Positions 16,195 through 20,110 of a stretch of DNA of 64,000 nucleotides are shown piece after piece; position 1 is the first letter of the stretch, and each line of letters opens with the position of its first letter. This stretch comes from Bacteroidales bacterium (GTDB lineage Bacteria > Bacteroidota > Bacteroidia > Bacteroidales > NBLH01): NCBI GenBank assembly GCA_050291445.1, contig JBNKJW010000091.1:1659-65658 (forward strand), written 5' to 3'. The notes below the pieces were generated by a model, which made no database searches, was not told where the DNA came from, and saw only the letters and a program-made list of their open reading frames with translations. A program made the translations under genes and the position numbers.

Positions 16195-17145
16195 TCAATC
16201 ATCTACAACACCCCTGGCTGCCTTTATGCCATCCGACATAATGTTGTGGATAGCATGCACATTGGTATGATAACCACTGGTTTTAGTGGTATATTGCCTT
16301 ATTACAATGATTTCAACTCCATCCTGGTTGCTTTGTTCTTTAATTACATTATGCGATGTTGAAACTCCGTTAAAGTACTTTCCTAATCCAAAACCCTCTT
16401 TTGCAACCAAAACTACATAAAAATAAGGGTATTGCTTGCCCTGTACATCGTTGAGTGATACCTGAGCATACATTCCCAGAAACTTTTCCGGCTGGTTTTT
16501 AAATTCAATCTTAATTTTTGTATCCGAAGGATATTTTTGCTCACTCCCTCTCACATAAATTAAATAATCAATTTTATCATCTGTTAGTGCTTGCTCAAAG
16601 CCTTTTAGTACGTTTTGAAATAGCTTAATTTTGTTTACCAGTTGAGGGGTTGTGGTTATTCTTCTTACTCCGGTAAACCAATGAGGATAAAGTAATACAG
16701 CAATATTTGCCACCATGATAAGCGATAGTTTTTCATTTGAAAAAACACCTGTCCCCCAGATTAGTACAAGTATCACAATGCTTAAAATAAAAAACAATAC
16801 TCCTCTCCCACTTGTAATATCAAATGCACTGATATCCCATTTACGAGCTTTCTTATTAATTTCAACAATATTATTAAACTGCTCCTTATCGGTTTTTACC
16901 CATTCCGAACCAGCTTTATATCCTGCTAATTTTATTCTGCTATCATAACCTTTAACCAACAATAGCAAGTTCCCCCCAAAGACAAATAATATTCCAGGGA
17001 AGGTTGCGAGGCTGTAATATTGTAGCACAAAACCAATTGCAATTAGAAAAATGCTCAAAAACAGTCGTACCTGATAGGTCAATGATTTCCAAATGTGAAA
17101 AATCACCACACCTTGTTCTTCTTTCGACAATAACAAAGTACTCAT
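16195..17145 (-). CDS. membrane protein of unknown function (about 4 TM helices plus a soluble C-terminal domain), third gene of the radical SAM cassette
   Basis: 316 aa. Hydrophobic helices at roughly residues 25-45, 48-68, 113-135 and 140-160. Its start overlaps the radical SAM gene stop (ATGA at 17142-17145). I recognise no family motif. Confidence 0.7.
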   Translation of the reverse strand: MSTLLLSKEEQGVVIFHIWKSLTYQVRLFLSIFLIAIGFVLQYYSLATFPGILFVFGGNLLLLVKGYDSRIKLAGYKAGSEWVKTDKEQFNNIVEINKKARKWDISAFDITSGRGVLFFILSIVILVLIWGTGVFSNEKLSLIMVANIAVLLYPHWFTGVRRITTTPQLVNKIKLFQNVLKGFEQALTDDKIDYLIYVRGSEQKYPSDTKIKIEFKNQPEKFLGMYAQVSLNDVQGKQYPYFYVVLVAKEGFGLGKYFNGVSTSHNVIKEQSNQDGVEIIVIRQYTTKTSGYHTNVHAIHNIMSDGIKAARGVVDD

Positions 17146-18527
17146 AATGCTTTTATTTCTAGGGTTTTATATAATTCTTCGTATCCTAAATTTCGCCAGT
17201 ATAATGGACAAGCCCCATTGCAAACAGCCAGGCTCTCGCAGTTTTTACAAATATCATGGGCAAATCCTTTTTCACGATAAAATTTCGCCTGCTTTCCTTC
17301 CCAAACTTCAGCAAATTCAGAAGAGACTAGATTCCCAACAGGCTCATCATAAGAAGAGCACGGCAATACATCGCCATTAGGTGCAACAGAAAGCAAACCA
17401 TCGCAGGCAGCGCATCCTTTGTTGCCTAAATCGTGCGTTATGGTATTAAACATGCAAAGCGGAACTGGCGAATACCACATGAATTCAATTCCTTGTGTCT
17501 TGCTGTTTTCCTGTATTTGCTGAATGATCTCACCCACTTCGCTGTATTTAATTACCAATCCTTCGTTAAAAACACTGCTCCCTGTTGGAATAACCAGGTT
17601 CATGCTAAAACGATCCAATCCAAGCGATTTCACAAATTCAGGTAATCGAATGCAATCTGTCTGATTTTTTTTGTTCAAGGTGGTATTTGTATGAACATGA
17701 ATACCCAACTCTTTAAAAATCTTTACTGTATTGATACTTTTTTCAAAAGCTCCTTTGTGATGCACCAGATTATCATGAGTGGTTGATGTGGTACCTTCAA
17801 TGCTCACCTGCACTGAATCCAGTCCTGCATTCACCAATTTCTCAGCGTATTCCTTATCAATCAAGGTTCCGTTGGTAATCAGGTTCACCCTCATTCCCAG
17901 GTTTTTGGCATATTTTATACAAGCAATTAAAACATCCTGCCTTAATGTTGGTTCGCCACCAGTAAAACTTATTGATGGAACTTTTGCCTTGTTATAAATG
18001 GTATTGATTATCTGCTTAAACTGATCCAAATCAAGCTCCTGATTACTACCTGTTGGGTTAGTGGTGCAATTGCAACCTGCATAACAAAACTGGCATTTTA
18101 AATTGCATTTGTAGGTTAAAGCCAATTCCGACAAAACTGGCAGTTTGCTAAAGCCTAAATCAAATTTTTCTTTTTCAACAGCAGGGTTAAGGCTAAATTC
18201 GTCAAGATTTCCTTCGAGGTTTAGTTTTAAAGCCATCATAAAATCCTCAATTTCAGCTGATTTTGCAGCGTCAAGGTGCTTAACCACATCGGCAATTTTA
18301 CCACCATCCAGAAGATATTGCAGAATTTTTACTGCACTAGCATTTATTTTTGTGGCCTGATTTGGACGTTTGATAAGCATGTTGTCCTCTGTACGGACAA
18401 AAATGTAAGGTTTAACATTGCCAATAAACTCATCTACCCACAATAAATGTGTTTTGTCCTGACTTCGACTTTGCTTAGCCTCACAGACATGATTGCCTGT
18501 GCTTTTTATTTTCTTTTTCCAAAACAT
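17142..18527 (-). CDS. radical SAM / SPASM-domain enzyme with an N-terminal PqqD-like (RRE) peptide-recognition domain
   Basis: 461 aa. Contains CX3CX2C (CNLKCQFC). SPASM cysteines are CAACDG...NGDVLPC and CKNCESLAVCNGAC (CX2CX5CX3C). The N-terminal 110 aa or so (PYIFVRTEDNMLIKRPNQATKINASAVKILQYLLDGGKIADVVKHL...IEDFMMAL) resemble PqqD/RRE. Confidence 0.9.
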   Translation of the reverse strand: MFWKKKIKSTGNHVCEAKQSRSQDKTHLLWVDEFIGNVKPYIFVRTEDNMLIKRPNQATKINASAVKILQYLLDGGKIADVVKHLDAAKSAEIEDFMMALKLNLEGNLDEFSLNPAVEKEKFDLGFSKLPVLSELALTYKCNLKCQFCYAGCNCTTNPTGSNQELDLDQFKQIINTIYNKAKVPSISFTGGEPTLRQDVLIACIKYAKNLGMRVNLITNGTLIDKEYAEKLVNAGLDSVQVSIEGTTSTTHDNLVHHKGAFEKSINTVKIFKELGIHVHTNTTLNKKNQTDCIRLPEFVKSLGLDRFSMNLVIPTGSSVFNEGLVIKYSEVGEIIQQIQENSKTQGIEFMWYSPVPLCMFNTITHDLGNKGCAACDGLLSVAPNGDVLPCSSYDEPVGNLVSSEFAEVWEGKQAKFYREKGFAHDICKNCESLAVCNGACPLYWRNLGYEELYKTLEIKAL

Positions 18528-20110
18528 TAATGTGATCCTCCACTAACGCAAGCTGAATGACAAGCTGAATGGCATGCCGAATGACATGCAGAGTGACATG
18601 CCGAATGACAAGCCGAATGGCAGGCATCATGACATACATTGATATCCTGCAAAATATCCACTGATGGTGCTGTTAAATGATCTGTATCTATTGGGATATC
18701 ATACTCATACTGATGAGGATTGCGGTAATGATACCTGTAATTGAAATAATTAATGTTTCCATAGTACCAGTGGTACCATAAATGGTTTGAGTTTTCCTGA
18801 TAATACTGTTGCTGTTCCTCTTCGGGGATGTTTTTTTTGCCCCAATCACCCATCATTTCGCGATAGTATTTTTTTGTTTCTTCAATATCGCAATCCCAGG
18901 CTTTTTTCTGGATATTTTTAACAATCAGGTTCATCATGTCTTCTAGTTCCTGTTGCGAAAATTCACCATCATCGGCCAATGAATCGTAAAGTTGCTTTTC
19001 GTAAACACCTAAAACACTTGTATCAGGTCCAGGAATAACTTCTACTTTTAAAGGAGATTTTGTTATTACTTTTAAAAACTGCTCATTTTCAAGAATGCTT
19101 ACCATTCCACTTAGGATACTTTTGAATGGAACTTCAAGATAAAAAGTAGCTTCTAATGGGGTTAAATCCATGCATATTTTCCCATCGATATGATAATGCG
19201 AAAGGGTGAGTTTAGGTGGTGTCCAGTCCAGTCTGCCCCAGTCAATTTCGCTAAGGCCTTCTTTGGCTTTTACCATTGATTTATGCTTGCGCCCAACTAT
19301 CAGGTAAAAAATGGCAATAACTACAAGCACCAAAACAATAAAAATGCCCCTGTCTGCCTTTTTTTCGCTCATCGGGACAAAATCAGTACTGTCATACATT
19401 TCTGTATTTCCTAAATTGAACCAATGTGCAGGCATGTAAAATTGGGTGCGCATATGAAACCTTACCGGAGGATACTCTTTATGAAAAACCAGCATCAGTT
19501 TGCCACTTTTACTTTTTTGGTAATCAACCAAAAACTTTTTGTTGACAAACTTCTCGGTCATTATGATGTTCTGGCCCATGTAATAATCCCGTAAAACGGG
19601 GTAGCCTTCCACAGCTTGCTCAGGCAAAATAACTTTTAATGTGTAGTGTTGCATGTTGTGGGCTTCATCCCACTTAACAGGCGACCAGTTAAATACAGTG
19701 AGCATTTGACCATCATCCTTTTGAGTATTAACCAGGTAGCCTGCAGTATTAAAATTGGTCGAAAAATAAAAAACATAAGTAAGATTACCGCTTGAAACAC
19801 CTTTGCCATCTGCAAGAATAATATCCCATTTTTCAGAATCGTATTTGTATATTTTTAACTTGTAGCGATTTCCAAAATCATCAACTGCATAAGATTCATC
19901 TGAAAACTCTTGAATATCAAGCCGCTCATTGCCTTTAAAGTAAAAACCATGCATTTCGCCCGATACTATTTTGTATTGTACAACATAGGCAACATTAGCT
20001 TCACCGTTTTTACTAAGTTCTACCGTTGTTTCAACAAAATTGATGGTGCCGCTTCCTGCAAAAAGATGAAGTGTAAGCAGCATAAAGAAAAGAATACAAC
20101 AAGTACGCAT
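18527..20110 (-). CDS. single-pass membrane protein (DUF2207-like ectodomain) with a C-terminal (Cys-His-Ser-Ala) tandem-repeat tail
   Basis: 527 aa. Signal peptide, then an ectodomain ([26 protein letters not shown]..HGFYF). One TM helix, [19 protein letters not shown], followed by RKHK. A Tyr/His-rich segment. The tail is [39 protein letters not shown]. Its stop overlaps the radical SAM gene start (TAATG at 18527). Confidence 0.8.
   Translation of the reverse strand: [527 protein letters not shown]
18548..18634 (-). repeat. in-frame 12-nt tandem repeat (7 units plus a final Cys codon) encoding CHDA-(CHSA)x6-C
   Basis: Read codon by codon on the minus strand. The units differ by synonymous changes: Cys TGT/TGC, His CAT/CAC, Ser TCA/TCG/TCT, Ala GCT/GCA/GCC. 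Confidence 0.9.

Follow-up and report, generated by a model that had tools for sequence, protein, structure and literature searches.

Enzymes that join a radical S-adenosylmethionine (SAM) core to a SPASM domain and to a recognition element (RRE) for ribosomally synthesized and post-translationally modified peptides (RiPPs) are taken to indicate small peptide natural products that are secreted. In the PapB/freyrasin system and in the sactisynthases CteB and SkfB, one enzyme turns repeated Cys motifs successively into thioethers; freyrasin is a ranthipeptide with tandem Cys-X3-Asp repeats. The known targets of the TIGR04117 and ACGX (TIGR04340) systems are short stand-alone proteins. QhpD is a radical SAM/SPASM enzyme whose target, QhpC, is small, soluble and later exported, and has no periodic repeat. 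The HXS system, published in 2026, has a protein effector with short repeats, HxsA, which is matured by the radical SAM enzymes HxsB and HxsC (PMC13128918). Here we describe three genes on the minus strand of a 64,000-nucleotide stretch of contig JBNKJW010000091.1 from a Bacteroidales bacterium (assembly GCA_050291445.1; the whole stretch is called the window). On balance, we take them to be an undescribed, self-contained module of two core genes and one accessory gene, in which a radical SAM enzyme (gene 2) modifies the Cys- and His-rich tail of a membrane protein (gene 1) in place.

The locus shares features with each of these systems and differs from all of them. Like the TIGR04117 and ACGX systems, it encodes a strict four-residue Cys period beside a radical SAM/SPASM enzyme, but its repeats end a membrane protein of at least 500 aa and its unit is ACH[S/D], with His invariant. 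The NCBIfam model TIGR04117 (Cys-Xaa-Xaa-Xaa repeat radical SAM target), a profile of 98 positions, matches the tail weakly (16.9 bits, cut-off 50, E 0.005). As in PapB and CteB, the enzyme is a radical SAM/SPASM protein with an RRE, and SkfB is among its best structural and sequence matches; unlike PapB/freyrasin, the module has no short precursor, protease or exporter, and Asp stands at the variable position in 11% of units. SuiB, the maturase that makes the Lys-Trp cross-link of streptide, is the best structural match, including the N-terminal RRE, at ~20% sequence identity. The substrate of SuiB is a 22-residue peptide without a Cys repeat, and its likeness to gene 2 is architectural only and silent on the reaction. 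HxsA resembles gene 1 in being a full-size protein with His-containing short repeats that acts as a protein and not as a natural product. HXS differs in using two radical SAM enzymes and HxsD, in its His-X-Ser repeats, and in the processing of HxsA and its export to the periplasm; the C-H-S-A repeat of the module has no H-x-S spacing. The likeness to QhpD and QhpC would lie in Cys thioethers placed in a protein that remains a functional subunit, in that case of quinohaemoprotein amine dehydrogenase. Compared with RRE-radical-SAM RiPP systems as a class, the locus has the radical SAM core, the SPASM domain and the RRE, and it lacks the short precursor and the leader protease or exporter.

Neither a publication nor an NCBIfam model for a system of tail gene and enzyme was found in the literature and in NCBIfam, and a paper on RiPP mining in Bacteroidales does not cover the cluster of genes 1-3. 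Both sources thus agree with an earlier preliminary description of this DNA, made from its sequence, which could match the architecture to no described system, although the idea of a Cys-X3-repeat target (TIGR04117) and the HXS system already exist. Already known are radical SAM targets with Cys-X3 repeats and a radical-SAM-matured protein effector. Unusual in the module are the membrane-protein substrate, the predicted cytoplasmic location of the tail, the extreme conservation of the tail and the span from Bacteria to Thorarchaeota. Mining pipelines look for short precursors, so a module whose partner is a membrane protein of at least 500 aa would be missed by them.

The tail of gene 1 holds 8 Cys and 7 His in its repeat units, plus one terminal His, and its translation agrees with the four-residue Cys/His period that the preliminary description had pointed out. 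Cys, His and Ala hardly vary across 158 unique tails; the remaining, variable position is Ser (84%) or Asp (11%) and rarely Asn, Gly, Ala or Gln, and 155 of the 158 have 7-9 CHxA units. The tail is the best conserved part of the protein, with ~80-100% identity across phyla versus 22-35% for the body, and this near-identity across lineages argues for an old, physiologically important function. In the main clade the tail is preceded by the motif W[YW]WYH...IPxDxDH[IL]...LNV (consensus of 69 tails). This motif and the linker that contains it are a candidate leader-like recognition segment for the RRE.

A search with gene 1 returned 42 homologues from many phyla, and each complete one ends in (ACH[S/D/N/G])n-ACVSGGxH. 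When gene 1 without its tail was compared by phmmer with 1.84 billion representative proteins, only 272 relatives were found, which indicates that the gene-1 family is small; the tail is seen in 14 of the 27 family representatives of at least 470 aa. Two of the seemingly tail-less representatives were examined and rejected as such. One (P0299) is frameshifted, and its tail can be read, together with the enzyme gene, in the next frame; the other (P0373) has a radical SAM gene beside it and is cut short by the end of its contig. Among the homologues examined, the tail is retained in complete orthologues of the 527-aa protein. Public gene calls for gene-1 relatives (P0003, P0027, P0299) often contain a frameshift in the repeat DNA or close to it, giving false C-termini such as 'LPxRLP' or seemingly tail-less proteins. 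In locus L227 (3200-3875), for example, the true tail and the enzyme gene were found in the next frame. In two KSB3/Vecturithrix loci (L063 and L138) the tail runs on past ACVSGG as GGGGSSGGGG[A/S]SG[G/S]W, a Gly-rich continuation ending ...GGGGSSGGGGASGGW. Such an ending is typical of ordinary DUF2207 and TPM-domain proteins, and these two loci hint at an ancestral Gly-rich tail in front of which the Cys-His repeat was inserted.

The probability that the tail is a chance low-complexity run, or the result of repeat slippage without function, and that the adjacency of the genes is incidental, is negligible. The tail DNA does form a 12-nt repeat (Tandem Repeats Finder), but an imperfect one with only 84% matches, and every difference between the six CHSA units of the window tail is synonymous. 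Both facts argue for selection at the level of the protein and against recent slippage as the source of the repeat. Furthermore, the tail is conserved from Bacteroidota to Thorarchaeota, the number of repeats is kept at 7-9, and the coupling to the enzyme gene, described next, holds in both directions. These comparative data rule out an origin by chance or slippage.

Tail genes and enzyme genes co-occur almost strictly, whichever of the two is used as the starting point. From the tail side, one genome for each of 185,579 species was scanned with a degenerate DNA pattern for (CHxA)3C, which gave at least 120 stretches. At least 97 of these are real tail open reading frames (ORFs), all 97 of which are matched by the gene-1 hidden Markov model; the ~20 remaining stretches were rejected as chance matches in a wrong frame of high-GC DNA that have no radical SAM gene in their vicinity. 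Among the matches listed, 72 tail loci have at least 1400 nt downstream. In 58 of them a gene-2-type enzyme follows immediately on the same strand, and in 6 more it lies elsewhere within the 8-kb block; the directly downstream enzymes are 35-55% identical. In the reverse direction, the enzyme served as the seed for 80 metagenome loci (46-77% identity). A tail gene is present in every such locus with at least 600 nt upstream, and it is directly upstream in all except L139. In this Bacteroidota-like locus (264-8739) the tail gene is separated from the enzyme gene by two unrelated genes, one of 113 aa and one for a 420-aa lipoprotein-like protein. In Acidobacteriota the order is gene 1, gene 3, gene 2. 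In Bacteroidota relatives the trio persists as a unit between differing flanking genes. The sequences, taken together, lead us to infer strongly that the tail is the substrate of gene 2, as the preliminary description had proposed.

No other gene recurs beside the trio in 208 loci. The preliminary description had noted that no protease or exporter is encoded, and indeed there is none in the window and none that recurs across the 208 loci. Clusters of flanking ORFs that at first resembled additional conserved neighbours were discarded, since the largest of them come from shadow ORFs in the other reading frames of genes 1-3.

This bears on whether the locus could be a classical RiPP system with an outsized 'leader', in which the tail, once modified, would be cleaved from the protein to give a small cross-linked peptide that is released or exported. 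Enzymes of RRE–radical SAM–SPASM type are normally RiPP makers, the structural matches to SuiB and SkfB fit, and the conserved motif ahead of the tail is leader-like. We nevertheless assign such a system a very small probability, because neither a protease nor a transporter recurs beside the genes in some 200 loci, and because a conserved membrane protein of 490 residues, with one domain outside the cytoplasm, would have to serve as the 'leader'. A short peptide that carries the tail on its own was not found in about 160 loci, where, among the matches listed, complete tail ORFs are all 500-950 aa. The tail also lies at the extreme C-terminus of the cytoplasmic region, with no Gly-Gly-type cleavage motif ahead of it. 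The lack of a protease or exporter, and a 'leader' that is itself a conserved membrane protein, lead to the expectation that the product stays on the protein. A modified protein is a likelier outcome than a natural product.

Carriers of the module belong to about 20 phylum-level bacterial groups and to Thorarchaeota (Asgard archaea). They include Bacteroidota, Chloroflexota, Planctomycetota, Spirochaetota, Myxococcota, Acidobacteriota, Gemmatimonadota, Omnitrophota, Aminicenantes, Desulfobacterota, Gammaproteobacteria, Kiritimatiellae, Verrucomicrobiota, Elusimicrobia and Clostridia. Almost all are uncultured, and many record names indicate sediments, digesters or rumen; one cultured carrier was seen, Desulfobulbus alkaliphilus DSM 24258 (L080). 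In Thorarchaeota (L004, L005, L040, L064, L105, L118) the gene-1 protein is 713-730 aa, and the enzyme gene is divergent and lies a few kb from the tail gene, not directly downstream. A viral origin was considered and dropped. All 18 matches in a viral contig collection are simple repeats without the enzyme, and no copy of the module occurs there.

The product of gene 2 matches Pfam Radical_SAM (PF04055, 1e-28) and SPASM (PF13186, 39.7 bits versus a cut-off of 21.5, 5.9e-10). Its CNLKCQFC motif supplies the CX3CX2C cysteines (C141-X3-C145-X2-C148), which are invariant in the homologue alignment. The SPASM region has the motifs CX9GX4C and CX2CX5CX3C and eight Cys that are invariant in 22 homologues (C358, C372, C375, C390, C427, C430, C436 and C440), so the full SPASM cysteine set read in the preliminary description is present. 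An AlphaFold model of gene 2 (mean predicted local distance difference test score, pLDDT, 77; predicted template modelling score 0.81) shows, at the level of the model, a three-domain architecture of RRE, radical SAM core and SPASM domain. The modelled N-terminus has strands at residues 42-45, 50-53 and 57-60, followed by helices at 63-73, 78-82 and 87-104 (pLDDT 84-93). In Foldseek searches the RiPP maturases SuiB and SkfB come out on top (424-452 aligned columns). SuiB ranks first (E 4e-15), and its alignment of 442-452 columns takes in the whole protein including the RRE. A gene-2 profile compared with solved structures found SkfB, PqqE, SuiB, anSME and CteB, the SuiB alignment covering profile positions 38-432. 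The PqqD- or RRE-like N-terminal domain suspected earlier is thus upheld by the model and the full-length SuiB alignment, while the sequence evidence for it is sub-threshold but consistent. In a relative, the neighbouring radical SAM gene has a weak precomputed PqqD match, which also speaks for an enzyme of the peptide-modifying type.

Gene 2 reaches the cut-off of no curated NCBIfam family. It scores 116 bits with the PqqE model, far under the cut-off, 94.7 bits with HxsC4 (cut-off 500), 91.3 bits with the ACGX-system radical SAM protein TIGR04340 (cut-off 400), 89 bits with PapB NF047865 (cut-off 340) and 87.9 bits with the anaerobic sulfatase maturase TIGR03942 (cut-off 349). No sulfatase gene adjoins gene 2 in the window or in the loci of Bacteroidota relatives that were inspected. 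These scores and the missing sulfatase place the enzyme outside the characterised families. Members of the gene-2-type cluster carry only generic names such as 'radical SAM/SPASM domain-containing protein'.

The body of gene 1 has a hydrophobic N-terminal segment, in keeping with the signal peptide proposed earlier, whose cleavage is predicted. Its extracytoplasmic part was earlier read as DUF2207-type, and PF09972 (the DUF2207 N-terminal domain) does match residues 22-169 above the cut-off, narrowly (26.9 bits versus 24.4, E 6.4e-6). The match is marginal, and four of five gene-1 homologues scanned score just under the cut-off. One strong transmembrane (TM) helix is followed by a cluster of Lys, Arg and His, as the preliminary description had stated, and by the positive-inside rule gene 1 is predicted to be oriented N-out and C-in, with the C-terminal ~250 residues in the cytoplasm. 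This orientation would bring the tail within reach of a cytoplasmic Fe-S enzyme. The conserved cytoplasmic domain contains invariant residues, among them W291, W296, P299, G310, E320, Y370, E371 and a WDCD motif. It has no match in Pfam, NCBIfam or the PDB, and a gene-1 profile likewise has no PDB match. The Tyr/His/Asn-rich stretch noted before is borne out by residue counts in 431-489 (11 Tyr, 6 Asn, 6 Gln and 5 His). Four gene-1 homologues are also listed under PF27846, a recent Pfam entry.

A Streptococcus mutans member of the DUF2207 family has been tied to stress tolerance (PMC10457818), and the literature searched contains no description of a DUF2207 protein that ends in a Cys-His repeat or is paired with a radical SAM enzyme. 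A mention of DUF2207 in a paper on 5-thiohistidine was set aside as a precedent, being unrelated by its authors' own analysis. The module gives a first mechanistic handle on the large DUF2207 family.

Table 1. Window positions of the three genes and of the domains and segments assigned to genes 1 and 2.
Feature	Position	Strand	Extent and basis
Gene 1	18527..20110	minus	527 aa; ORF; DUF2207-like single-pass membrane protein with (ACHS)n tail; candidate substrate
Predicted signal peptide	20051..20110	minus	Gene 1 residues 1-20; hydrophobic segment; cleavage inferred
Extracytoplasmic domain, DUF2207 N-terminal type	19346..20050	minus	Gene 1 residues 21-255; Pfam PF09972
Single transmembrane helix, then KHKSMVKAK	19289..19345	minus	Gene 1 residues 256-274
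Conserved cytoplasmic domain	18821..19288	minus	Gene 1 residues 275-430; homologue alignment
Tyr/His/Asn-rich linker and conserved pre-tail motif	18635..18820	minus	Consensus of 69 tails
Tail CHDA-(CHSA)6-CVSGGSH	18530..18634	minus	Translation; proposed modification site
Gene 2	17142..18527	minus	461 aa; ORF; RRE–radical SAM–SPASM enzyme
N-terminal RRE (PqqD-like) domain	18213..18446	minus	Gene 2 residues 28-105; AlphaFold model
Radical SAM core	17493..18140	minus	Gene 2 residues 130-345; Pfam PF04055
SPASM domain	17193..17480	minus	Pfam PF13186; 8 invariant Cys
Gene 3	16195..17145	minus	316 aa; ORF; 4 TM helices and C-terminal α/β domain

Modification in place could proceed as follows. Gene 1 would be inserted in the membrane with its DUF2207-type domain outside and ~250 residues, including the (Ala-Cys-His-Ser)n tail, in the cytoplasm. 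The product of gene 2 would be a cytoplasmic enzyme of three domains, namely the RRE, the radical SAM core and a SPASM domain with two auxiliary Fe-S clusters. Its RRE would dock onto the conserved segment immediately upstream of the tail, and the enzyme would then modify the 7-9 repeat units in turn by radical chemistry. By analogy with PapB/freyrasin, the sactisynthases and QhpD, the most likely reaction would be the formation of Cys-derived thioether cross-links, one per unit, of the sactionine or ranthionine type, and the acceptor may be a small invariant neighbour such as Ala. The modified tail would remain attached to the membrane protein, neither cleaved nor exported, and the polytopic product of gene 3 is probably a membrane-side partner or scaffold.

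We tentatively suggest, as a doubtful further step, that the finished tail is a fixed cross-linked Cys-His ladder or a protein-derived cofactor that is not released, its C-X3-C-H elements perhaps loaded with a metal or tetrapyrrole. If true, the extracytoplasmic DUF2207-type domain would be coupled to cytoplasmic redox or metal chemistry, and the modification would be a new RiPP-like class, made in place on a membrane protein in anaerobic bacteria and Thorarchaeota. As a compact substrate of 35 residues with 7-9 identical units, the tail would also suit work on new radical chemistry.

Several observations weigh against modification of the tail by gene 2 as set out above. By sequence, the RRE is sub-threshold. 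PqqD is detected in 7 of 15 homologue N-terminal domains with a best E value of 0.0028, the RRE of the lasso-peptide protein TfuB1 gives E 0.17 and an hhalign probability of 76% was obtained. The best NCBIfam scores of gene 2 are with the tetrapyrrole enzymes AhbD (148 bits) and NirJ2 (147 bits; cut-off 500), not with peptide maturases. Some clades accept Gly as the variable residue of the repeat, which means that a β-carbon link there cannot be universal, and the invariant Ala or a backbone α-carbon becomes a likelier acceptor than the Ser/Asp side chain. Arrays of Cys and His are able to bind metals without modification. Four loci (L013, L028, L060 and L085) have a tail gene and no enzyme gene in the stretch seen, and in Chloroflexota and Myxococcota unrelated proteins stand in place of gene 3.

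The genome with L013 holds a second, coupled copy (L024). In L013 and L060 a weak gene-3-like ORF follows the tail gene, and there is no enzyme gene in 4.6-5.8 kb downstream; the tail proteins of these two loci may be paralogous substrates served in trans. The replacement of gene 3 in Chloroflexota and Myxococcota suggests that this gene is not essential to the core reaction and that the core consists of the tail protein and the enzyme.

The tetrapyrrole scores speak for the alternative that the tail binds a metal, an Fe-S cluster or haem unmodified, or is loaded with a cofactor, the enzyme acting on or attaching a cofactor or small molecule. On a helix, the period of four would set a Cys stripe beside a His stripe, and the repeats can be read as overlapping C-X3-C-H motifs. 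In one locus (L139), moreover, a gene for a CopA-like heavy-metal P-type ATPase lies directly after gene 3, but this metal-transporter neighbour is a single case in 208 loci. The AhbD and NirJ scores are far under the cut-off, and those enzymes lack an RRE, whereas gene 2 has an RRE-like domain and a full-length match to SuiB. Metal binding would leave the invariant Ala and the near-invariant Ser/Asp unexplained. Haem would require an even number of Cys, two per haem, and the tails have 8, 9 or 10; attachment of haem c is extracytoplasmic, and the tail is predicted to be cytoplasmic. We regard this alternative as unlikely.

A different question is the role of the module, irrespective of its chemistry. 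HXS offers a precedent for radical SAM enzymes that mature a repeat-bearing protein effector (PMC13128918), and an anti-phage or envelope-defence function of this kind would suit a compact module found in variable genomic contexts. Gene 1 has a PADLOC match to the candidate system PDC-S26 (E 0.001, 16.6 bits), but it is marginal, and the pVip matches of gene 2 reflect only the generic radical SAM core. Defence genes do not recur nearby in the 208 loci, the viral contig collection holds no copy, and HxsA is exported whereas the gene 1 tail is predicted to be cytoplasmic. A tail that is nearly identical over very distant phyla looks more like housekeeping physiology than an arms race. A role in defence appears decidedly improbable.

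Gene 3 encodes a 4-TM protein with a soluble domain that could not be placed earlier, and the model and the searches of families and folds lead to the same result. The protein has no match in Pfam, NCBIfam, PADLOC or PDB sequences, and none of its 224 homologues carries a Pfam domain. Its model (pLDDT 80) places four helices in the membrane and gives the C-terminal α/β domain a sheet of six strands; against PDB folds the best Foldseek match is not significant (E 0.08, TM-score 0.16-0.22). The soluble domain is predicted to face the cytoplasm because the loop between helices 2 and 3 is rich in Lys and Arg. A gene-3-like protein is present in 29 of the 44 loci that are long enough to judge, among the matches listed, and more distant versions occur, for example, in L024 and L044.

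Loci from Chloroflexota, Myxococcota and Sumerlaeota form a second type of system (L009, L011, L019, L031, L036, L051, L061 and L106-L108). Their tails are longer, interrupted and more complex. Downstream of the enzyme gene, the place of gene 3 is taken by genes for a ~400-aa coiled-coil protein with a zinc ribbon and for a ~170-aa membrane protein with a C-terminal zinc ribbon.

In the window the three genes are coupled as the preliminary description had it, the ORF coordinates and the junction sequences being in agreement. Genes 1 and 2 overlap as TAATG, with base 18527 in common, and genes 2 and 3 overlap as ATGA at 17142-17145. The public annotation starts gene 1 nine codons further in, which gives a protein of 518 aa. 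No Rfam match was found at 14000-24000 or 14600-16300, and a scan for sigma-70 promoters and terminators gave site counts below, or no higher than, those in shuffled sequence. Next to gene 3, 1.5 kb (14720-16195) contain no ORF of at least 60 aa and no Rfam match. Within this interval lies a 298-bp element (15506-15803) with 30-nt inverted repeats at its ends (15506-15535 and 15774-15803) that are 93% complementary, where none is expected by chance. A public contig that is 99.9% identical (L121, GCA_050292335.1) loses synteny with the window exactly at 15506. The element looks like a miniature inverted-repeat transposable element at a rearrangement or assembly junction. Farther away, at 8228-13287, two big ORFs on the plus strand, of 1265 aa and 393 aa, would fit a Bacteroidota origin of the window, as they are putatively the type IX secretion proteins PorU and PorV.

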